Below, in pieces: positions 40,701 through 51,252 of a stretch of 64,000 nucleotides of DNA; positions within the stretch are counted from its first letter, which is position 1, and each line of letters starts with the position of its first letter. Source of the stretch: an uncultured Omnitrophica bacterium (GTDB taxonomy: Bacteria > Omnitrophota > Gorgyraeia > JACQQV01); NCBI GenBank assembly GCA_947085655.1, contig CAMTXH010000009.1, positions 3,738-67,737 on the forward strand. The letters run 5' to 3'. Made by a program: the position numbers and the translations under genes. The notes under the pieces are model-generated. The model saw only the letters and a list, made by a program, of their open reading frames with translations. It did no database searches and was not told the origin of the DNA.

Positions 40701-41830
40701 CCACTCTTTTCTGGTTTTCGGTTTTTATTCTGATTTACATCTACATCGGATATCCGGCTCTTTTGGGCGTTGGGTCCCGGTTTTTCCGGAAGCCGGTCCG
40801 GAAGGGGGCCGTTTTCCCGACCGTCTCGGTCCTCCTTTCCGCTTATAACGAGGAAAAGGTTATCCAGCGAAAGATGGAAAATCTCCTCTCCCTCGATTAT
40901 CCGGATGAAAAGATTGAAATTCTGGCCGGCTCCGACGGCTCGACGGACGAAACACCCTCGATCCTCCGGTCCTACGCGGGGGAACATGTTCATCTGGTCA
41001 TCCAAACCGAAAGAAAAGGGAAGGCCAAGATGCTGAACGCCCTTTTTCAAAAGGCAAAAGGGGAGATTCTGGTGTTGACGGACGCCCGCCAGCGGATCGA
41101 CCGGCAGGCGATCCGGAGACTTGTCCGGAATTTCAACGACCCGAAAGTCGGCTGCGCAAGCGGCGAACTGGTCCTCAAAGAAAACGGCAATTCCGTCGGG
41201 AAAGGGATCGGCCTTTACTGGAACTACGAGAAATTCATCCGAAAGACCGAGAGCGAAATCGACTCCGTCATCGGGGCGACGGGTGCTTTGTACGCGATCC
41301 GGAGGTCCGTCTGGCGTCCGATTCCGGAGGAGACGATTTTGGACGATCTCTATCTTCCGATGCAGGCGGTCTCCCAGGGATTCCGGACCGTCTTCGACGG
41401 CGAGGCGCGGGTGTATGACGTGACTTCTCTCACCCCCAGGCAGGAATACGAACGGAAGGTGCGGACGTTGGCGGGGAATTACCAAAGTTTCGTCCAGTTT
41501 GCATCTCTTTTTAACCCTTTTCGGAGCCGCGTCGCGCTTCAATTCATCTCGCATAAACTTCTCCGAATCCTGGCGCCCTTTTTCCTGGCGACTCTTTTGG
41601 CGGCAAACGGGTTTCTATGGGAGGACCTTTTCTACCGAATTTTCTTCTTCATGCAGTCGGCCTTTTATGCGATGGCGGCAGTTGGGGCGTTTGCGCCGGT
41701 GAAGCGGATTCGCTTTTTTGCCGCACCGTATGTCTTTTGCCTGCTGAATTTCTCCGCGCTGGCCGGACTGGTCCGGTATCTTTCGGGAAGACAGCATGTC
41801 ACCTGGCAGAAAGGGGGTCTTTTGTCGTGA
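40697..41830 (+). CDS. membrane-bound GT2 glycosyltransferase
   Basis: N-terminal TM, VSVLLSAYNEEKVI...ILAGSDGSTDET...LTDARQ, C-terminal TM helices. Confidence 0.8.
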   Translation: MTTLFWFSVFILIYIYIGYPALLGVGSRFFRKPVRKGAVFPTVSVLLSAYNEEKVIQRKMENLLSLDYPDEKIEILAGSDGSTDETPSILRSYAGEHVHLVIQTERKGKAKMLNALFQKAKGEILVLTDARQRIDRQAIRRLVRNFNDPKVGCASGELVLKENGNSVGKGIGLYWNYEKFIRKTESEIDSVIGATGALYAIRRSVWRPIPEETILDDLYLPMQAVSQGFRTVFDGEARVYDVTSLTPRQEYERKVRTLAGNYQSFVQFASLFNPFRSRVALQFISHKLLRILAPFFLATLLAANGFLWEDLFYRIFFFMQSAFYAMAAVGAFAPVKRIRFFAAPYVFCLLNFSALAGLVRYLSGRQHVTWQKGGLLS

Positions 41831-42621
41831 AACTCGCTGCGATCGGAATTCTTTTCCTCTTTGCCTATTTTCCGACGCTCGTTTGGATGGCGGACCGTTG
41901 GATGGCGGCCGATTCCTATTACGGGCACGGTTTTCTGATTCCGCTTGTGAGCGCCTACCTTGTTTGGCGCAAGCGGAAGGAAATTGCGCAACTTCCGAAG
42001 GAATCTTCAAGCTGGGGGCTTGTTCTCCTTGTCGTCGGGCTTCTCATTCATCTGGCGAGCGCTATGGTCAAGGTCTATTTCACCTCCGGTTTCTCGATCC
42101 TGATTTCCGTTTCGGGGCTGGTTCTCTATCTGGGGGGAAAACGGCTGCTCCGGGCGGTCGGGTTTCCGATTTTCATGCTCTTTTTCATGATTCCCTTTCC
42201 GCTCGTTGTCATCGGAACGGCGGTCCTCCGGTTGAAACTGTTTGCGGCGATGTGCGCCACCGTGATTCTTCATCTGATCGGGATGCCGGCAGTCCAGCAG
42301 GGAAGCACCATCTTTATGCGGAACGCCACCGTTCTGGTGGATGATCCGTGCAGCGGACTCCGTTCGCTCCTTTCGCTTCTGACACTCGGGGTTTTGTTTG
42401 CCTATCTGAAGCAGGCCCGACTTTCAAGACGGGTCCTCTTTTTCCTTTCTTCCATCCCGATCGCGATTTTTGCAAATGTCATCCGGATTGTGATGCTGGC
42501 CGGGATCGCCGACATTTACGGGGTGGATGTGGCATTGAAATTCTTCCATGACTTCTCCGGTTTTGTGGTATTCGGGCTTGCCCTCGGGGGATTGTCACTC
42601 GTCGGGAGAGTTCTTCAATGA
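41827..42621 (+). CDS. epsH: exosortase (EpsH/Xrt family transpeptidase)
   Basis: Likely GTG start at 41827 overlapping upstream TGA (ORF-track start 41617 is an upstream extension); 8 TM helices; invariant exosortase motifs DDPCSGLRSL (Cys) and FANVIRIVML (Asn/Arg). Confidence 0.8.
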   Translation: MKLAAIGILFLFAYFPTLVWMADRWMAADSYYGHGFLIPLVSAYLVWRKRKEIAQLPKESSSWGLVLLVVGLLIHLASAMVKVYFTSGFSILISVSGLVLYLGGKRLLRAVGFPIFMLFFMIPFPLVVIGTAVLRLKLFAAMCATVILHLIGMPAVQQGSTIFMRNATVLVDDPCSGLRSLLSLLTLGVLFAYLKQARLSRRVLFFLSSIPIAIFANVIRIVMLAGIADIYGVDVALKFFHDFSGFVVFGLALGGLSLVGRVLQ

Positions 42622-43250
42622 AAAAAAACTGGGTTGTGAGCACCATTTTATTCATCATCGTCGGAGCGATCTCTCTCCACTTTTATCAGATTCAACGCGC
42701 CACCCACGATACAAGGGATATCCGGAAGATTCCGATGGAACTGGGCGGGTGGCAGGCAAGGAATATCCAAGTGACGGATCGGGAGTATGAGGTGCTTGAG
42801 ACGCGAAATCTGATTTCCCGCGAATACCGGAATGGAAAGGGAGAGTCGATGAGTCTTTTTGTCATCTATTCCGAGACAAACCGCCGCGTCTGCCATCCGC
42901 CGGTCGTCTGCCTGATCGGAAGCGGCGCTACCGTCAACCAAAGCGGCCGCTCATTTCTTTCGTTCCCGGAAAAGGAAATTCCGGTCAACACCCTGATGGT
43001 TCAATCCGGAAATCAAAAAAATCTGGTTCTCTATTGGTATATGCTGGATGAATCCTTCACGGAGGATTACTTCACCCAGCAGTTTCGATGGGTCATCCGC
43101 CAAGCGATGGGTCACCGGGGAGGAGGTGCGCTCATCCGCGTCGTGACGCCCCTCCATGGAACGGAAGAAGAGACGCTCGAACGGGTAAAGGAATTTATCC
43201 AAGAACTCCTTCCGCATCTGACAGAAGAAAAGAAGGTCCGCTCGACCTAA
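42618..43250 (+). CDS. epsI: EpsI-family exosortase-associated protein
   Basis: 210 aa, N-terminal TM anchor then periplasmic domain, immediately downstream of and overlapping the exosortase gene (ATGA), as in EpsH/EpsI pairs. Confidence 0.7.
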   Translation: MKKNWVVSTILFIIVGAISLHFYQIQRATHDTRDIRKIPMELGGWQARNIQVTDREYEVLETRNLISREYRNGKGESMSLFVIYSETNRRVCHPPVVCLIGSGATVNQSGRSFLSFPEKEIPVNTLMVQSGNQKNLVLYWYMLDESFTEDYFTQQFRWVIRQAMGHRGGGALIRVVTPLHGTEEETLERVKEFIQELLPHLTEEKKVRST

Positions 43251-43436: not shown

Positions 43437-43452
43437 TGGCATGGAGATTGCG
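43437..43452 (+). promoter_or_regulatory. sigma-54 (RpoN) -24/-12 promoter TGGCAT-N5-TTGC
   Basis: TGGCATggagaTTGCg at 43437-43452; consensus spacing; ~60 nt upstream of ATG 43514; preceded at 43304-43343 by four CTGGAC-like repeats with 10-11-bp phasing. Confidence 0.55.
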
Positions 43453-43513
43453 TATATTCAATAGATGCGGCAGACTTTCTATGCCTTGTTTGGACCAAGA
43501 TTAAACAAATAAA

Positions 43514-44332
43514 ATGAAGCCATTCAGGAAAACCCAAAGCGCTAGAGGAAGAATTCAACTTACCGTGACTCTCGGAGTAGCACTTCTTGTGCTCGTGGGT
43601 CTTGCAACGGTTTGGTGCGTCAACTCCTTTTCAGACACCGGTGCATTCGGAGCACAACACAAGATGCCGGTTCCTGAACCGAGCAGTGCTATTCTTCTTG
43701 GCGGAGGCGGCATTTTGGGCGCCATCGTGCGGTTTGCCCGGCGCCGTTTTCAGGAGTTCAAACGGGCTTTCGATCTCTTCTTTGCATCCCTGGGTCTTTT
43801 GGTCTCCCTTCCGATTCTGGCGCTCATCGGCCTCTGGATTAAGTGTATCTCAGCCGGGAGCGTTTTCTTCACACAGGAACGGGTCGGAAAGGATGGCGCG
43901 CTTTTTACGATTTATAAACTCCGGACGATGCATAACGGTGCGGAGGCCGAAACCGGGCCGGTTTGGGCCCGGGAGAACGACCCGCGCCTGATTCCTTTCG
44001 GGAAGTGGATTCGGAGACTTCACCTGGATGAGATTCCGCAGCTTTGGAATGTTCTCCAGGGAGAGATGAGTCTGATCGGACCCAGACCCGAGCGCCCCGA
44101 ATTTGTCCAAGAGCTCCAAAGAGCCATCCCGGATTACGAAAAGCGTTTAAAGGTGAAGCCGGGGATCACGGGACTCGCGCAGGTCTGGCACAAATATGAC
44201 GAAACCCTTCAGGATGTCCGGAAGAAGATTAAATACGACCTTCTCTACATCCGAAAGATGTGCCTCTGGGTGGACTTGCGGATTCTGGCGAATACGGTCC
44301 TTGTGGTGTTGACCGGAAGGGGGGCACGCTAA
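43514..44332 (+). CDS. priming polyprenyl-phosphate sugar-phosphotransferase (Bac_transf/WbaP-C-terminal type) carrying an N-terminal signal-peptide + PEP-CTERM-like module
   Basis: aa 83-272: KRAFDLFFASLGLLVSLPILALIG...FTQERVG...KLRTM...PGITGLAQV = Bac_transf catalytic domain. aa 1-80: hydrophobic signal-like helix then VPEPSSAILLGGGGILGAIVRFARRRF, same pattern as the three PEP-CTERM tails downstream. Confidence 0.75.
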   Translation: MKPFRKTQSARGRIQLTVTLGVALLVLVGLATVWCVNSFSDTGAFGAQHKMPVPEPSSAILLGGGGILGAIVRFARRRFQEFKRAFDLFFASLGLLVSLPILALIGLWIKCISAGSVFFTQERVGKDGALFTIYKLRTMHNGAEAETGPVWARENDPRLIPFGKWIRRLHLDEIPQLWNVLQGEMSLIGPRPERPEFVQELQRAIPDYEKRLKVKPGITGLAQVWHKYDETLQDVRKKIKYDLLYIRKMCLWVDLRILANTVLVVLTGRGAR

Positions 44333-44845
44333 ATGTCCCGGTACCGTGGCCTGGGGAGTCTGAGTTCAACCGCTTTTAAGGCGCTCATCATTAATACACT
44401 CTTTCTCGGCATTGCCCTTGCGGCGGGAAGCGGCCTTTTTTACGTTTATCACGATAAAAATTCGCCGGAGAGTTTTTACAAGAATGAAGGATACACCCTT
44501 CTCACGGGCGAAATGACCAAGAAAGACAAAGCCGTTTGGGAGGGGCAGGAAAATATCTTCGGCGCCACAACGTATCTTGCAACCGGTGACAATTTGCGGA
44601 ACCCGAATTTTGACAATGCGGAGACAAGGGAATTCATCCAACGCCAGGATACCCGGCATGCAACGCAGGTCCCGATTAAGGCGATTCAATTTTTCGGATC
44701 CTCAATGACGGTCACCTTCGAAAACGGTTGCGAGGTGACCCGGACATGGGATATCGCCCGGAGCCCCGGGAAGATCTATCCAACTCGTAAAATCACGGAG
44801 GAGTGCGATGATGCAAAACGACAGGAACTTCCGCCTTATTCATAA
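44333..44845 (+). CDS. membrane-anchored hypothetical protein
   Basis: 170 aa; TAAATG overlap with upstream gene; single N-terminal TM (ALIINTLFLGIALAAGSGLFYVY). Confidence 0.5.
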   Translation: MSRYRGLGSLSSTAFKALIINTLFLGIALAAGSGLFYVYHDKNSPESFYKNEGYTLLTGEMTKKDKAVWEGQENIFGATTYLATGDNLRNPNFDNAETREFIQRQDTRHATQVPIKAIQFFGSSMTVTFENGCEVTRTWDIARSPGKIYPTRKITEECDDAKRQELPPYS

Positions 44846-45590
44846 TCCATACGTCATTCTGATTGCCGTTACGGCACTCATGTTTGGATGGGCCGTTCAG
44901 GCGGAGGCGTCCATCTTTCACCAGATTCCGTTTGAATTCATCTCCTTCTCAGAAGGAGACCTTGATTATTCGGATTCGGCCGATGACAACAACACCGGCT
45001 CGACACCTCTCGGGTTTTCCGTCACGCTGGGAGGAGCGACCTACAGCTACTTTGACATGGATTCAAACGGCTATATTCAACTGTTAACCGGGGCGGCACA
45101 TTCTCCCACCGAATACGGTTACGGCGGAATTGATGATTTGATCGATGAAGATCCGACATCCACCTATCTTCTTTCGGCCTACGATGACCTCTCTTCTTAT
45201 GATTACGGCTTTTACGGATATAAAGTCTATGGGGACATGGTCATTTTTTACTATGATACCGAGACCTATGACGATGGGGGCTACGAGCTTTTGAATAATT
45301 TTGAAGTCATTCTTTACGATGACGGTCGTGTCCAGTGGAACTTCAACTACGCCGATTACGACATTTATGGTTATGATCTCTACTCGGGCCTCTATTTCGG
45401 GAACACGGAAACGCGCCATGAGTTATACCGGGAGACGATTCCTCAAAGGGAGTCGTGGATCTACGGACCGCATTCACACGAGGTGATTCCGGAACCGAGC
45501 TCTCTGGGACTTTTGGGAATGGGCCTTTTGGGCCTGTGGAAGTATCGTAAGAAGACAGGAAGCAATGAACACCTTGCAAATCTGTCATGA
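44808..45590 (+). CDS. PEP-CTERM sorting-domain protein, Asp/Tyr-rich
   Basis: SD GGAGGAG; signal peptide (VILIAVTALMFGWAVQA); Asp/Tyr-rich mature region; C-terminal VIPEPSSLGLLGMGLLGLWKYRKK followed by an 11-aa tail. Confidence 0.75.
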   Translation: MMQNDRNFRLIHNPYVILIAVTALMFGWAVQAEASIFHQIPFEFISFSEGDLDYSDSADDNNTGSTPLGFSVTLGGATYSYFDMDSNGYIQLLTGAAHSPTEYGYGGIDDLIDEDPTSTYLLSAYDDLSSYDYGFYGYKVYGDMVIFYYDTETYDDGGYELLNNFEVILYDDGRVQWNFNYADYDIYGYDLYSGLYFGNTETRHELYRETIPQRESWIYGPHSHEVIPEPSSLGLLGMGLLGLWKYRKKTGSNEHLANLS

Positions 45591-45613
45591 AAAACAAGGA
45601 GGAGGTAAGTAGC

Positions 45614-46297
45614 ATGAGTAAACCGAAGTTAGTAGTTTTAGCAGCGGCAGTCCTTCTGCTCTTGAGCGGAGGGAATGCCCTTGCTGTCCCGAGCATCGAC
45701 GGAACGATCGGTCCCGGGGAATGGAGCGCAGGCCTGATCATCAATTCGTTCGATCCGAACGAAGGCGGGATCCCGGATGATTATGACATCTTCCGGGTCG
45801 CGATGATTCAGGAGAATTCCGGCGGGTCGGATGACGGGCTCTATATCCTCATCGACCTTTACGGATCGCCGACTTTCACCTCACTGGATGAGACGTCGCC
45901 ACCGGCGCCTGTCTCCTACAGGACGGCAATTGATGTCAACCGGGACGGAGATTTCAATGATGCGGTGGATCGCATCTTCGATTTCCGCGCCACCGGATTC
46001 ACCGTCTTTGACGGAACCGGGACAGCGATTGCCGACACCGGCACAGAGTTCATTTTGGGTCCGGATGTGGTGGAGTTCTTTATTCCGGAAGATATGCTCG
46101 GAGGACCTTTCTCGTCCTTCGACACCTTCACGCGTCTGGATAACGGCGGTGAGCCTGCAGACGACCGGGTGCCGGATAGAGGGTTCGACACTACGATTCC
46201 GGAGCCGGCCACCATGGCCCTTTTTGGTTCAGGGCTTTTGGGGGCTTTGGGATACGCCAGAAGGAAATCTGCAATGAAGCCGTACCACAAACCTTAA
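45614..46297 (+). CDS. PEP-CTERM sorting-domain protein
   Basis: SD AAGGAGGAGG then ATG 45614 (ORF-track start 45587 would place the SD inside the ORF); signal peptide LVVLAAAVLLLLSGGNALA; C-terminus TIPEPATMALFGSGLLGALGYARRKS. Confidence 0.75.
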   Translation: MSKPKLVVLAAAVLLLLSGGNALAVPSIDGTIGPGEWSAGLIINSFDPNEGGIPDDYDIFRVAMIQENSGGSDDGLYILIDLYGSPTFTSLDETSPPAPVSYRTAIDVNRDGDFNDAVDRIFDFRATGFTVFDGTGTAIADTGTEFILGPDVVEFFIPEDMLGGPFSSFDTFTRLDNGGEPADDRVPDRGFDTTIPEPATMALFGSGLLGALGYARRKSAMKPYHKP

Positions 46298-46361: not shown

Positions 46362-46703
46362 ATGAAAAATGTAACGCTTCTTCTAATCCCTCTTCTCATA
46401 CTGTTTCTCTCCGGATGCGAAGGGGCAACAACGGCTGCCTTGACCCTCTTGGGCGCCAGCTCCACTATCGTCGAAGACCTGACCAAGGATGACGGCGGGG
46501 TCGGTGGCGGTGGAGGTTCAGGCGATACCGGTGATACCGGAGGCGGCGGCGGAGGGGGAGGCGGCGGGGATGTTCCCCCGACGCTGGCCCACTCGCCGGA
46601 GCCGGGCTCTATGCTCCTTTTTGGGAGCGGCCTTTTGGGAGCGGCCCTTTCCCGTTCACGATTCCGAGGGATCCTTAGGAGAAGACGTAAGACAATATCA
46701 TAA
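46362..46703 (+). CDS. small PEP-CTERM sorting-domain protein with lipoprotein-like signal and poly-Gly spacer
   Basis: 113 aa; LLILFLSGC lipobox-like signal; GGVGGGGGSGDTGDTGGGGGGGGGGD; C-terminus SPEPGSMLLFGSGLLGAALSRSRFRG. Confidence 0.7.
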   Translation: MKNVTLLLIPLLILFLSGCEGATTAALTLLGASSTIVEDLTKDDGGVGGGGGSGDTGDTGGGGGGGGGGDVPPTLAHSPEPGSMLLFGSGLLGAALSRSRFRGILRRRRKTIS

Positions 46704-46946: not shown

Positions 46947-47807
46947 ATGTCTAAAAAATTAAACACATTAATTGATATCTGGTATGATACAGCAGGACTC
47001 ATCAAAAAATATCCCCACCTCCTTTTTCCCCTCACCATTGTTGCCTTCCTAGAAGCGCTTTGGCTTGAATTTCTCTATTTCGCCCCTTATACCTTTCTCG
47101 GTACCCTTATCCTCCCTCCGATCCGGCGTTTCCTGGGGGAATTGGCCCTCCACTATCCGGTCTATCTTCTGATCCTTCCGAGAATTTTCAATCTGGGACA
47201 GATCTTCCTTTATATTCTGATTGGAGGGATTTTGACCGGGGTGACGGTGGTTCTGGCGGAGGGGGCGAATGAGGGGAAGACCCTCTCCTTGCAAGCGGCG
47301 TGGAAAAAGATAAGGGGCCGCTGGTTTGCACTGATCCTGGCCGCCCTCTTTCTAACCCTTCTCATCCGTCTGGTCGGCACCCTGCCGATTGCGGCCCTCC
47401 GGGCCGGTTTTGCCTTCGCCGGGAGAGGGTGGTTACGGCAGGCGCTCGAATTCCTTACAGGGGCCCTTCCTTATATTCATTTCCTCCTTGGAGTTCTGGC
47501 ACAGACTTTTATCCTCTTTCTTATTCCCCTTATCGTTCTTGACAACCGGAAGTTTTTCCCGGCGATCGGAAAGGGACTCGTTCTCAGCGGGCAACATCTT
47601 CTCCGGGTGTACGCCCTTCTTTTACTTCCCCTCATCTGCTACAGTCCCATCTGGTATCTCAAGGGGAACGTGAATTTTTTGGTCCGGAAGACCCTCTATC
47701 CGGAGTCGATCCTCATTCTTTTGGCGATCGGAATTCTGGCGACCATTGTGCTCGACACCTATATTGCGGTCAGCGCCACACTCTTTTTCCTAAGGCATAA
47801 GAAATGA
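46947..47807 (+). CDS. integral membrane protein (hypothetical, ~7 TM)
   Basis: 286 aa, mostly hydrophobic helices; possible sigma-70-like -35 TTGACA (46912-46917) / -10 TATAAA (46933-46938) upstream. Confidence 0.5.
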   Translation: MSKKLNTLIDIWYDTAGLIKKYPHLLFPLTIVAFLEALWLEFLYFAPYTFLGTLILPPIRRFLGELALHYPVYLLILPRIFNLGQIFLYILIGGILTGVTVVLAEGANEGKTLSLQAAWKKIRGRWFALILAALFLTLLIRLVGTLPIAALRAGFAFAGRGWLRQALEFLTGALPYIHFLLGVLAQTFILFLIPLIVLDNRKFFPAIGKGLVLSGQHLLRVYALLLLPLICYSPIWYLKGNVNFLVRKTLYPESILILLAIGILATIVLDTYIAVSATLFFLRHKK

Positions 47808-48655
47808 AAAAGACCCTTATCTTTTTCGGGGCAATCCTGATTGTTCTCTTCGGGGTTTTGAGTCTCATCAAAACTAAAAATCCCTATGCGGCGGAGAAGC
47901 GGTTCTGGAAAGCCCGGAACGCCACCCGGAAAATCCTTTCTAATCCCGAAACAACTCCCCCCGCCCTTTTCCGGGAAAACCGGGAGGAGTACGAGGCGAT
48001 TATCCGGCAGCATCCTCCCCTGGCAAAGGAATCCCTCTTGGCTATTGCAGGGCTTTTGATTCATGAGAAGGAGTATGACGAGGCCCGGGACCTCCTCGCA
48101 GAATCGAAACAAAAGTACGCTGAGGATGCCGAGTTCGGAGCCCGTGCGCAATTTTTAGCCGGCTATTCTTATGAAAAAGAGGGGAATTGGAGAGAAGCGG
48201 TACAGGCGTATGAGGCCTTAATGGAAGCCCACATCGGGAACCGGATGGCGTTTCAGATACCGCTCTATATTGCCCGGCAGGATTTGAAGAAGGATACCCA
48301 AAGGGGCGCTGAAAGTTATGAAAAGGCGATTGCTTATTACCGACGCTTGAGCCAGGGTCCGAAGGAAAATCCGACAGCGTTCAATGCGTTGAATTACCTC
48401 TATTTGGCCTACCATGAACAACAAAAATGGGAGGAGGCGTTGGGGGTGACGGAGGAAATTGTAGTGACCTATCCGAGGGCAATGAGCGATTATGCGCTGG
48501 TGATCGAGGGACTCGGCCGAAAACTCAATCAGCCGGAGAAAGCGATTGCGGTGTTTGAATCGTTCATTCAATCCCACCCGGACCACCCGATCGTTCCCCG
48601 TTTAAAAGAGCGAATCCAAAAACTTGGAGGGAAGCGCCAAAATGTTCCTTCGTAG
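47804..48655 (+). CDS. membrane-anchored TPR-repeat protein
   Basis: N-terminal TM (LIFFGAILIVLFGVLSL) then several 34-aa TPR-like repeats (e.g. AQFLAGYSYEKEGNWREAVQAYEALMEAH). Confidence 0.6.
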   Translation: MKKTLIFFGAILIVLFGVLSLIKTKNPYAAEKRFWKARNATRKILSNPETTPPALFRENREEYEAIIRQHPPLAKESLLAIAGLLIHEKEYDEARDLLAESKQKYAEDAEFGARAQFLAGYSYEKEGNWREAVQAYEALMEAHIGNRMAFQIPLYIARQDLKKDTQRGAESYEKAIAYYRRLSQGPKENPTAFNALNYLYLAYHEQQKWEEALGVTEEIVVTYPRAMSDYALVIEGLGRKLNQPEKAIAVFESFIQSHPDHPIVPRLKERIQKLGGKRQNVPS

Positions 48656-49865
48656 ATTCCGAAAACCCCCTTCAGCCACCCCGATTCTTCAGTTTCACGC
48701 CGCCCTTGAAAAGATGAACAGAGCAGAGTCGATGGAGGCCCTTTGGGACGCGGCTTTCCAGGAAGCGATGCTTTTGACGGACGCCGAGGCGGCGTCCCTT
48801 TTTTTGTGGGATGAGGAAAAAGAAGAACTGGTCCTCAAAAGGGGATCCGGCGGCTCCCTCCCCCCTTTACCGGAAATCCGGCGGCGGATGAACGAGGGGA
48901 TTTTCACCCCTTCCTTGATGGTGATTCCGATTCTTCTTAAAGGGGAACTCAAAGGGCTTTTGAGTCTGACCGACAAAAAATCAGGAAAGCCCTTTACCCG
49001 GAGAGACCTGGAATGGACGGCCCTCCTCGGTCACTGTCTGGCATTGACCATGGAAAAAAATAGTCTCGCCGCGGAACTCAAAGGACACCGGGATGCGCTG
49101 GAGGAGAGCCGGAAAGGCGCAACACACCTTGAGGAGAAGAAACGGAAACTCGAATCGGAACTCAAAGTGTCCCAGAAGATGGCCTCCATCGGGAAACTGG
49201 CGGCCGGCATTGCCCATGAATTGAACAATCCCCTGGACGGAACCCTCCGTTATCTTCATCTTTCTCTGAGTCATTTGAGAGAGGGGGACACGGTTCGGGA
49301 GTATCTCCTGGAGGTCAAGCAGGGGCTGGACCGGATGGTGAATATCGTGAAGAACCTCCTTGCCTTTTCCCGGCGTCAGAGCATTCGGGAAAAGCGAGTT
49401 GACCTCCATGAGGCATTGAACAATGTCCTTTCAAATCTCATCGACACCTTTTTGCCATTCCGGGTCGATGTCATCAAAGCCTACCATCCCAACCTCCCTC
49501 TTCTGGTCGACAAAGGGGTCGATCAGATTTTTACAAATATCATCAAAAACGCCCTGGAAGCGATGCCGAACGGCGGTATTCTGAGGATTGCCACGATGAT
49601 GAACGAAGATGGAATTACCGTCCGGATTTCGGATACGGGAAGCGGCATTCCGAAAGAACAGAAGCGGTTTATCTTCGAACCTTTCTTCACCACAAAAGAG
49701 ATTGACAAGGGGTGCGGTTTGGGGCTGTCGATTTGTTACGAACTGATGCAGGCCTACGAAGGGCGGATTGAATTCGAAAGCGAGGAAAAGCGGGGAACGA
49801 CGTTCCTTCTCCATTTCCCGTTGAAGGTTGTTGCAAGGGAGTCCCAACTGGCCTATGCGCGGTAA
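48624..49865 (+). CDS. GAF-domain sensor histidine kinase (soluble PrsK-like partner of the sigma-54 regulator)
   Basis: GAF-like N-terminus; H-box IAHELNNPL; HATPase motifs (NALEAM, ISDTGSGIP, GCGLGLSI); true start may be ATG 48642 (GGAGGG 11 nt upstream). Confidence 0.75.
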   Translation: MEGSAKMFLRRFRKPPSATPILQFHAALEKMNRAESMEALWDAAFQEAMLLTDAEAASLFLWDEEKEELVLKRGSGGSLPPLPEIRRRMNEGIFTPSLMVIPILLKGELKGLLSLTDKKSGKPFTRRDLEWTALLGHCLALTMEKNSLAAELKGHRDALEESRKGATHLEEKKRKLESELKVSQKMASIGKLAAGIAHELNNPLDGTLRYLHLSLSHLREGDTVREYLLEVKQGLDRMVNIVKNLLAFSRRQSIREKRVDLHEALNNVLSNLIDTFLPFRVDVIKAYHPNLPLLVDKGVDQIFTNIIKNALEAMPNGGILRIATMMNEDGITVRISDTGSGIPKEQKRFIFEPFFTTKEIDKGCGLGLSICYELMQAYEGRIEFESEEKRGTTFLLHFPLKVVARESQLAYAR

Positions 49866-51252
49866 CGGTCGGATTCTGATTGCCGATGATGAGCCGTTGA
49901 TCCGGAAATCGCTGTACGAGTCCCTCCGGATGGAGGGGTACGAGGCCGAGATGGCCTCGGACGGGGAAGAGGCGCTTCAGAAAATGGCGCGGATTCCCAT
50001 CGACCTGGTGATTGCCGACATCAAAATGCCGAAACTGTCCGGGATCGATCTTCTGAAGGAAATCAAGGCAAAATATCCGGACATTCCCGTTCTTTTGATT
50101 ACGGGGTACGGGACCATCGATCAGGCGGTGGAGGCGATGCGGCTCGGCGCGGCCGATTACATCACCAAGCCGGTCACAGACGGCGAAATTCAAATCGTCA
50201 TCAAAAAACTTTTCGAACAGAAAAGTCTCATGGATGAAAATATCGCCCTCCGCCACGAGCTTGCCCAGACGGTGCGGGACCGGTTCCACGGCCTCATCGG
50301 AAAAGACGAAAAGATGCAGAAGGTCTACCGGCTGATTGAGAACATCTCCCAGACCAAGGCAACGGTTCTCATCCGGGGGGAAAGCGGCACCGGCAAGCGG
50401 CTGATCTCCCTTGCCATTCATGCCAATGACCCGGTTCGGAGGGAGAAGCCCTTTGTGGAGGTAAGTTGTGCCGCACTCCCCGAAACCCTGCTGGAAAGCG
50501 AACTGTTCGGGCATGTGAAAGGGGCTTTCACCGGGGCGATCCGGGACCGGGTGGGACGGTTTGAACTGGCGCAAGGAGGAACGATCCTCTTGGATGAAAT
50601 TGACGCCTTCTCACCGGCGCTTCAGGTGAAACTTTTGCGGGTGCTCCAGGAGGGATCCTTTGAGCGGGTCGGGGATACGAAGACCTTGCAGGTGGATGTG
50701 CGGGTGATTGCGGCAACCAATCAGGACCTCCATGAACTGATTCTGGAGGGGAGCTTCCGCGAGGATCTTTACTACCGCTTGAATGTCATTGCGATTGACC
50801 TTCCGCCCTTGCGGGAGCGGAAGGGGGACATCTCTCTTCTCGTGGACCATTTTCTTGACAAATTTTCCAAGAAAAGCAAGAAACACTTTACCGGCGTTTC
50901 GGAGAGATTTCTGAACATCCTTGAAGCGTATCACTGGCCGGGAAATGTTCGGGAACTGGAGAACGTCATTGAACGGGCCACCATTGTGGCGCAGGGAAAT
51001 GTTCTGATGGAACAGGACCTGCCGGTTCTCTTCCATCGGACACCCGCGCCCCTCCAGAATAATGCTTCCAGACCTTTGAAAGAGATGCTGGGGGAGCCGG
51101 AGAAGGACCTCATCCTGCAGACGCTTCGCGGGTGTCATTGGAACCGGAAGCGCGCGGCGGAACGGCTCGGCGTGAACCGAACCACGCTATACAACAAAAT
51201 GAAGAAATATCATCTCTTCGGAGAAAAGGGCGAACCGGTAACGCACATCTAA
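49855..51252 (+). CDS. sigma-54-dependent Fis-family response regulator (NtrC-type; PrsR-like)
   Basis: REC domain (ILIADDEP...D at ADIKMP); AAA+ sigma-54 activator ([22 protein letters not shown]); C-terminal Fis HTH ([19 protein letters not shown]); ORF-track start 49828, ATG 49855 more likely. Confidence 0.85.

Follow-up and report, generated by a model that had tools for sequence, protein, structure and literature searches.

Why would an enzyme that starts glycan synthesis carry, near its N-terminus, the kind of signal by which an exosortase recognises the proteins it sorts? The question is raised by a gene at positions 43514..44332 (forward strand) of a 64,000-nucleotide stretch of DNA from an uncultured Omnitrophica bacterium (contig CAMTXH010000009.1 of assembly GCA_947085655.1), the whole of which we call the window. 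A scan of open reading frames (ORFs) and profile hidden Markov models (HMMs) identify it as a 272-residue fusion of a PEP-CTERM module with a monotopic phosphoglycosyl transferase (PGT). A prediction made in 2006 held that PEP-CTERM/exosortase systems connect the sorting of proteins to the production of exopolysaccharide (PMC1569441), and the canonical signal of these systems lies at or close to the C-terminus (Haft 2006, PMC1569441; Haft 2023, 10.1101/2023.06.07.544157). The sequences indicate that one protein here combines a substrate-like exosortase recognition module with a complete monotopic PGT, and that this combination is under strong selection and conserved across Omnitrophota.

The first 80 residues had been described, in an earlier note on this DNA, as a miniature exosortase substrate, and each part of that description was found. 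A signal-peptide-like segment (residues 1-40, 43514..43633), supported by a model helix and by homologues, comprises a basic n-region MKPFRKTQSARGR, a 20-residue h-region LTVTLGVALLVLVGLATVW (judged by inspection) and CVNSFS. In homologues the signal peptide ends in a signal-peptidase site of the (C/S)-Y-A↓Q type. A short, variable periplasmic stub follows (residues 41-53, DTGAFGAQHKMPV, 43634..43672), which is unstructured in the structural model, with a predicted local distance difference test score (pLDDT) of about 50. Neither its sequence nor its length is conserved among homologues, where roughly 8-14 variable residues occupy this place. Next come the PEP signature motif (P54, E55 and P56, 43673..43681) and a Gly-rich transmembrane helix (residues 57-72, SSAILLGGGGILGAIV, 43682..43729; modelled as helices 56-64 and 66-77), with RFARRRF directly after it. 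The cytoplasmic basic cluster and the linker RFARRRFQEFKRAFD (residues 73-87, 43730..43774), which is invariant in the homologue consensus, lead from the module into the re-entrant helix of the enzyme.

Residues 52-77 (VPEPSSAILLGGGGILGAIVRFARRRF), which include the PEP motif, match PEP-CTERM models. The segment passes TIGR02595 (18.5 bits against a cutoff of 16), and PF07589 gives 20.1 bits for the whole protein and 22.6 bits for residues 1-85 alone, its gathering score being 20.7. The earlier note had equated the motif with the ends of the three PEP-CTERM proteins encoded just downstream, and the positional alignment bears this out: the tails of those substrates align with the PGT segment position for position, with PEP at 0-2, Gly at +11 and +14, and then the basic cluster. 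Judged by its sequence, the module departs from a PEP-CTERM domain in position only, since it is not C-terminal: 193 residues follow the basic cluster (from F79 to 272), and the same holds for all family members.

An AlphaFold2 model of the fusion protein (mean pLDDT 82) has a helix at residues 10-40 (the signal peptide), an unstructured stretch at 41-55 that includes the PEP motif, a helix at 56-77 (the PEP-CTERM helix) and a re-entrant helix at 79-112, followed by a globular domain. Five Lys or Arg residues precede the first helix, the loop is near-neutral, and a charge of +6 follows the second helix. The charges and the modelled helices are compatible with an in-out-in path of the N-terminus, which would therefore leave the PEP motif facing the periplasm and keep both the Arg cluster and the enzyme on the cytoplasmic side. 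The coordinates, sequence and topology argument that had been put forward for this protein are all correct.

The enzyme part begins near residue 83, as had been noted. The Bac_transf catalytic domain (PF02397, residues 83-266, 43760..44311), with which the re-entrant membrane helix at residues 79-112 is counted, scores 220 bits against a gathering score of 27. Its Asp172-Glu173 dyad (44027-44032), within LHLDEIPQL, is invariant in 90 sequences and aligns with the DE of WbaP. In Foldseek comparisons the model matched the PglC structures 8e37 and 8g1n (E about 3e-12, TM-scores 0.72-0.79, with 0.79 for 8e37); the domain is also homologous in sequence to WbaP, and sequence identity to PglC-type PGTs is 37-38%. 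The enzyme part is thus assigned to the PglC-type monotopic PGTs, which predicts transfer of a sugar-1-phosphate to polyprenyl phosphate. Because residue 10 of PglC aligns with residue 82 of the fusion protein, the approximately 72 N-terminal residues appear to be an add-on to a complete small PGT. The fusion shares with 8e37 and 8g1n the catalytic domain, the re-entrant helix, the KRxFD start and the Asp-Glu dyad. PglC itself, however, starts about 10 residues before the re-entrant helix and has a cytoplasmic N-terminus, whereas the fusion has approximately 72 extra residues, two predicted membrane crossings and a periplasmic PEP motif.

The fusion enzyme lies outside TIGR03013 (EpsB_2), the PGT family curated as XrtA-associated, and outside TIGR03025. 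It scores 247.9 bits against a cutoff of 393.35 for the former and 286.9 against 295.55 for the latter, and only profile positions 252-443 and 256-445, respectively, align. Members of both families are likewise priming sugar transferases genetically associated with exosortase systems, and their C-terminal catalytic domain is homologous to that of the fusion. By contrast, they are about 445 residues long, have a multi-helix N-terminal region of their own and lack a PEP motif, so that they are tied to the exosortase by neighbourhood and not by carrying a recognition signal. No NCBIfam model covers the PEP-PGT fusion, and the sources label such proteins only as "sugar transferase", with the combination of PF07589 and PF02397 present in the precomputed annotation of some members.

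The fusion is widely conserved. We collected the 120 best-matching homologues in the database (E<1e-90; usually close to 258 residues long), mostly from metagenome-assembled genomes (MAGs) and single-amplified genomes of Candidatus Omnitrophota. All have the same N-terminal build in register, except two fragments cut by contig ends, and the consensus (A/V)PEPxSxALxSTGxxGWxxRFAR(R/K)RFxEFKRxFD runs directly into the transferase domain. The portion RFAR(R/K)RFxEFKRxFD is near-invariant in 108 sequences. PEP or PDP is present in 108 of the 120; apart from the two fragments and one sequence with TES, most others have PEA or PEV. In an alignment of 90 full-length sequences, P54 and E55 are invariant, and P56, G66, G69 and FARxRF..FKR are at least 90% conserved, while catalytic-domain divergence reaches about 46-55% identity. 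PF07589 matches 77 of these 90 members at E≤0.01. Given this conservation, a chance origin of the module is excluded even though the HMM scores are marginal.

Selection on the segment was assessed through a codon comparison with the closest two genomic relatives. Because synonymous sites are almost saturated, we used the ratio of nonsynonymous to synonymous differences per site (pN/pS) in place of dN/dS. The ratio is 0.13 for residues 53-82, 0.21-0.24 for the catalytic domain and about 0.6 for the signal peptide and stub (residues 1-52). Judging by this comparison, the segment consisting of PEP motif, transmembrane helix and basic cluster is translated in the frame of the fusion and is under no less constraint than the enzyme. 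A further search for the linker peptide in one genome per GTDB species yielded 31 related loci, 24 labelled Omnitrophota and the others bearing loose MAG labels, and the frame is open through the signal-peptide segment in all 31.

These data bear on whether the fusion could be an artefact of annotation or assembly, consisting of a tiny PEP-CTERM ORF and a small PGT translated from an internal codon, or of a missed stop or frameshift. A start at the GTG of V72 (43727) would yield a textbook small-PGT N-terminus (MRFARRRFQEFKRAFD), and the public gene call (P0001) starts elsewhere than the full ORF, at GTG 43565. Yet all 272 codons are open, without a single in-frame stop, and the sole sequence near V72 that resembles a Shine-Dalgarno site (GGAGG) lies 19 nucleotides upstream, which is too far. 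The ATG of M51 (43664) would give a product beginning MPVPEP that retains the PEP module. An identical fusion protein is encoded in two independent Logan assemblies of the source strain, again without a stop; these are distinguished by a 4-nucleotide indel 15 nucleotides upstream of the ATG, which means that strains vary here while the ORF is preserved. The frame is also continuous in the 31 other genomes, purifying selection spans the junction, and a separate small ORF is seen in none of the homologues. The earlier statements that no stop and no plausible internal start separate the two parts therefore stand, and we regard an artefact as extremely improbable. The idea that a stop had been lost, or misassembled, as a local accident is refuted, given that the same fusion occurs in all homologues examined, in two assemblies and in 31 species-representative genomes, under purifying selection.

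The exact start matters little to this conclusion, as the fusion is intact with either 43514 or 43565. ATG 43514 fits the homologues better than GTG 43565 because it supplies the basic n-region. A 15-codon ORF (MRQTFYALFGPRLNK, then a stop) lies upstream in another frame, at 43465-43512, and stops one nucleotide before the PGT ATG. It resembles M(M)RYFYALxGSxxNK, a stretch by which close homologues (P0002-P0010 and locus L013) are extended in frame at the N-terminus. Strain variant L001 has a 4-nucleotide deletion (43496-43499) and a C>A change (43471) within this ORF, which is therefore not under coding constraint here and may be a conserved 5′ leader. A true PGT start further 5′, by way of the 15-codon ORF, was rejected, since the deletion in L001 shifts the frame and the main ORF is unchanged.

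The fusion gene is consistently linked to an exosortase. In the window, the exosortase gene (41827..42621, forward strand) encodes 264 residues as publicly called, with the longest ORF beginning at 41617. The protein scores 228.8 bits with PF09721, 186 bits with TIGR02602 (cutoff 105.6) and 71 bits with the TIGR04178 signature. It reaches 192.7 bits with the XrtA model TIGR03109 (cutoff 208) and is below the cutoff for every named Xrt subtype, so that it passes only the generic models TIGR02602 and TIGR04178; the Omnitrophota cluster may stand for an exosortase subtype that has no name yet and whose defining feature is its PEP-PGT partner. Immediately downstream is the gene for the exosortase-associated protein EpsI (42618..43250, forward strand; TIGR02914 90.3 bits, PF11984 118 bits), and the two genes together lie 0.26 kb upstream of the fusion. 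A gene for a GT2 glycosyltransferase is also located upstream. Three PEP-CTERM substrates are encoded downstream on the same strand: substrate 1 (44808..45590, 260 residues, PF07589 27.8 bits), substrate 2 (45587..46297, 236 residues, 29.1 bits) and the Gly-rich substrate 3 (46362..46703, 113 residues, 24.7 bits).

The same arrangement recurs in the loci from the GTDB scan. An exosortase is present within 8 kb upstream in 27 of the 27 loci that have at least 3 kb of upstream sequence, usually with a GT2 gene ahead of it, and EpsI was detected in 26 of these (the exception being L008). Wherever the sequence extends far enough past the fusion gene, which is so in 23 loci, two to six PEP-CTERM genes follow it at once, and the same is true of L003. 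Next in line there are usually genes for a 286-residue membrane protein, a TPR protein and a sigma-54 regulator. The segment of PEP motif and transmembrane helix in the PGT is slightly closer to the substrate tails of the same locus than to those of other loci (BLOSUM scores, p=0.019).

A profile built from the junction found 303 matches at E≤0.001 among 1.84 billion cluster representatives. PEP-PGT fusions account for about 33 of the best 150 matches and are of three kinds, namely the short form described so far, forms without a signal peptide and long forms. Those without a signal peptide start at or just before the PEP motif. A divergent example, P0157 (L038:8001-8711), adjoins a phosphoglucomutase gene and has an in-frame stop that leaves at most 19 acidic residues before the PEP motif. 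The long forms are rarer than the short form. They include P0139 (458 residues), P0206 and P0270 (480 and 502), P0241 (485) and P0200 (311, with its N-terminus cut off), and PF07589 scores them above threshold, at 22.8-26.4 bits. When complete, they consist of a signal peptide, an ectodomain of 200-260 residues, the PEP-helix-basic module and then the PGT. P0131 (328 residues) is intermediate: it has only about 55 residues before the PEP motif and scores 20.3 bits with PF07589, slightly short of the threshold.

The ectodomains of the long forms have free-standing relatives. Those of P0241 and P0270 are up to 62% identical to an Omnitrophota family of stand-alone proteins of about 265 residues, annotated as "PEP-CTERM sorting domain-containing protein", whose members are encoded directly downstream of the short-form PGT in L003, L008, L015 and L033. 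The ectodomain of P0139 matches the first downstream substrate of L010; at its own locus, the gene for the fused protein closes a row of PEP-CTERM genes, and the helix of the protein is closely like those of its neighbours. Real exosortase substrates can therefore be fused to a PGT via the sorting signal. The short form resembles this architecture after reduction of the cargo to a spacer, although the change could have run in either order. An origin by fusion with a PEP-CTERM gene, one of the possibilities raised earlier, gains support from the complete, homologous substrate ectodomains of the long forms.

The junction search also returned single long ORFs with 2-10 internal PEP-CTERM modules, which make up 72 of the best 150 matches. 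In these polyproteins, a PEP-CTERM module is followed by a few residues, a signal-peptide-like stretch ending in AQA or AHA, and the next ectodomain. Examples are P0121, P0124, P0126, P0132, P0134, P0138, P0140 and P0148, and there are about 60 more; one such locus is L039:84-4070 (NCBI GCA_020427265.1, JAGQOS010000429.1). P0124 was confirmed on DNA as one uninterrupted ORF under translation table 11, in a sequence whose GC content of 62% is unlike that of Omnitrophota. The PGT fusion is therefore not alone in having an internal PEP-CTERM signal. A literature search for a description of PEP-CTERM polyproteins found none.

What might the module do for the enzyme? We read the gene product as a single protein of the inner membrane and propose that the signal peptide and short stub would bring the PEP motif to the outer face of the membrane, with the Gly-rich helix running inward to the cytoplasmic Arg cluster and the invariant linker leading from there into the re-entrant helix of the PGT. 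The co-encoded exosortase would bind the module in the membrane as it binds a substrate tail and would probably cut the PGT at the PEP motif. The enzyme would then be the "leaving group", with the helix and PGT staying in the membrane beside the exosortase. The start of lipid-linked glycan synthesis would in this way be coupled in place and time to exosortase-dependent protein sorting, possibly because the glycan or polymer is where the sorted proteins end up attached or embedded. Cutting the short form would free only a stub of about 10-13 residues, so any gain would be to the enzyme, by recruitment or maturation, and not in export of cargo. That recruitment or maturation of the PGT is the point is also suggested by the fact that the stub is not conserved and that some forms start at MPEP. 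In the rare long forms, one polypeptide would give both a true substrate and an enzyme.

We consider it reasonably probable that the exosortase recognises the PGT and that this couples the two functions, whether by cleavage or by docking without cleavage. Docking to the exosortase is consistent with all the evidence, that is, the strict synteny, the PEP motif and the Gly pattern. Cleavage, and not just docking, is what the long forms and polyproteins point to: a cut at the PEP motif would be required for the long forms to release an ectodomain equivalent to its free-standing homologues, and extending the same cut to the short form is the simplest assumption.

Several points weigh against recognition and cleavage by the exosortase. 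The PF07589 result for the fusion protein is marginal, and the HMM scores, taken on their own, are marginal as well. About 10% of the family have PEA or PEV in place of PEP, and recognition may be relaxed or altered in these members. No exosortase was found within 8 kb upstream of P0157 in L038. The co-variation of the PGT helix with local substrates is weak when measured by identity (p=0.05); overall it is suggestive, and a few loci may drive the result. Cleavage of the stub is purposeless on its face, and docking is equally compatible with the short form. Finally, the organisms are uncultured, and we infer both the mechanism and its central steps, binding and cleavage of the PGT, from sequence.

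The module could instead be a relic of a past fusion between a PEP-CTERM gene and a small PGT, its leftover signal peptide and helix acting only as an extra membrane anchor or topology device and making no contact with the exosortase. The long forms show that fusions of this sort occur, and large PGTs such as WbaP also have extra N-terminal helices. The loss of the third PEP residue in about 10% of members and the P0157 locus, with no exosortase in view, would fit as well. An anchor, however, needs no PEP motif, yet the P and E of the motif never vary and its third P reaches at least 90% conservation while the catalytic domain diverges to about 46-55% identity. Constraint on the segment exceeds that on the enzyme domain, a substrate-like Gly pattern and a signal-peptidase site are kept, and the linkage to the exosortase is strict (27 of 27). 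A plain anchor thus seems unlikely. We think it still less likely that the PGT is a decoy, a pseudo-substrate that remains uncut, occupies the exosortase site and gates sorting according to PGT abundance. The evidence for recognition would serve this idea equally, the non-conserved stub is useless as cargo, forms without a signal peptide begin nearly at the PEP motif, and the PGT and substrates are apparently co-transcribed. On the other hand, the module is indistinguishable from cleavable tails, the substrate ectodomains of the long forms would be stuck if they were uncut, and the polyproteins imply that internal modules are processed.

Recognition of the PGT as a substrate-like partner, which we favour, also admits a bolder version, in which the sorting signal is used "backwards". 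Cleavage or capture by the exosortase would deliver one priming glycosyltransferase per exosortase, and the exosortase would transfer its substrates onto the lipid-linked sugar made by that enzyme, which would serve either as the acceptor itself or as the beginning of the polymer. This version is rather unlikely as it stands.

A promoter-like site of the sigma-54 type, TGGCATGGAGATTGC (43437..43451, forward strand), lies 63 nucleotides upstream of the ATG and matches TGGCAY-N5-TTGC exactly. The motif is not enriched within the window (6 matches, with 5.5 expected). In about 12 of 33 related loci, it occurs 140-470 nucleotides upstream of the PEP codon, where it is usually the sole occurrence in the locus; the background is 0.05 per kb. 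In another group of loci, it is upstream of the GT2-exosortase genes. The site is meaningful because of this recurring position and not through enrichment in the window. It would fit the PrsR-like sigma-54 activator encoded at 49828-51252, and the fusion gene probably heads a sigma-54 operon with the exosortase substrates.

We now note properties of the neighbouring genes. Substrate 3 is mostly a poly-Gly/Asp spacer and has an N-terminal lipoprotein-like signal (lipobox LFLSGC), with an orthologue at L013 10150-10476; until it is processed, it could have an anchor at each end. Further downstream on the forward strand, and syntenic in most related loci, are genes for a polytopic membrane protein of 286 residues (46947..47807), a TPR protein (47804..48655), a PrsK-like histidine kinase (48624..49865; TIGR02916 83.5 bits, below the cutoff of 300) and a PrsR-like sigma-54-dependent response regulator (49828..51252; TIGR02915, PEP_resp_reg, 418 bits, below the cutoff of 502.6). 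No Pfam or NCBIfam model matches the 286-residue membrane protein. An uncharacterised core component of the system, it is encoded in almost all related loci, with the PEP-CTERM genes on one side and the TPR gene on the other, and is duplicated in L020. The 413-residue kinase is full-length in the window and in L007, L013 and L035. In most related loci, its position holds only an ORF of about 105-120 residues that is weakly similar to the kinase (for example L003:15004-15351, L008:12482-12811 and L010:13600-13941).

Two further observations concern small genes in the cluster. An ORF of 170 residues (44333-44845) begins at the stop codon of the PGT gene and extends into the first PEP-CTERM gene. 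It has one N-terminal hydrophobic segment and no family matches, and it is limited to contigs of this strain, being absent in the nearest relatives L013 and L031. Small genes of the PF05635 family (23S rRNA intervening-sequence protein) are found inside the exosortase cluster at different points in L003 (7935-8288) and L036 (1820-2173).

The fusion is a variant within a known system, and not a new kind of system. Like canonical PEP-CTERM proteins of EpsH/XrtA systems, it matches the same HMMs, and its gene adjoins those for an exosortase, EpsI, exopolysaccharide synthesis and a PrsK/PrsR/TPR-like regulatory set. Unlike them, it has an enzyme after the basic cluster and only a stub of about 13 residues before the PEP motif, and its functional part corresponds to the piece that ordinary substrates lose on cleavage. 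A remnant with a role of its own has a parallel in Streptococcus gordonii, in which a two-component system reportedly senses the C-terminal remnant peptide left by sortase A. As proposed here, what stays in the membrane after a sorting cleavage has its own function; that remnant, however, is a signalling peptide of about 30 residues, whereas in the fusion it would be a whole enzyme, and the cleavage is a proposal only. A 2025 mBio paper (PMC12802240) describes the initiating PGT as a control point of polysaccharide synthesis, governed by contact with a response regulator. That partner is cytoplasmic, whereas the one proposed for the fusion is a transpeptidase of the membrane, which would be contacted through the sorting signal that the PGT itself carries.

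A full-text literature search that combined PEP-CTERM or exosortase with sugar transferase, PGT or Omnitrophota found no description of the fusion, although a prior mention is possible. As far as we can tell, it is the first direct physical link between the exosortase and glycan-priming machineries. To our knowledge, the attachment partner of exosortase substrates is still unknown, as is the crosstalk of exosortases with the polysaccharide machinery. If the module were only an anchor, the finding would shrink to a note on domain architecture. Regardless, the fusion breaks the rule that tripartite signals of this type are strictly C-terminal, and it affects annotation, in that HMM post-filters and family models overlook such fusions, which are labelled "sugar transferase".

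A sorting signal on a glycan-initiating enzyme, found phylum-wide, amounts to evidence of the Rosetta-stone type that both machineries act together. It also offers a testable handle on the link between exosortases and polysaccharides, in the form of the PEP motif, the invariant RFARRRFxEFKR linker and the active-site Cys of the exosortase. If the signal were used backwards, the long-sought acceptor pathway of PEP-CTERM sorting would be identified and, taken together with the polyproteins, exosortases would routinely process internal sites.

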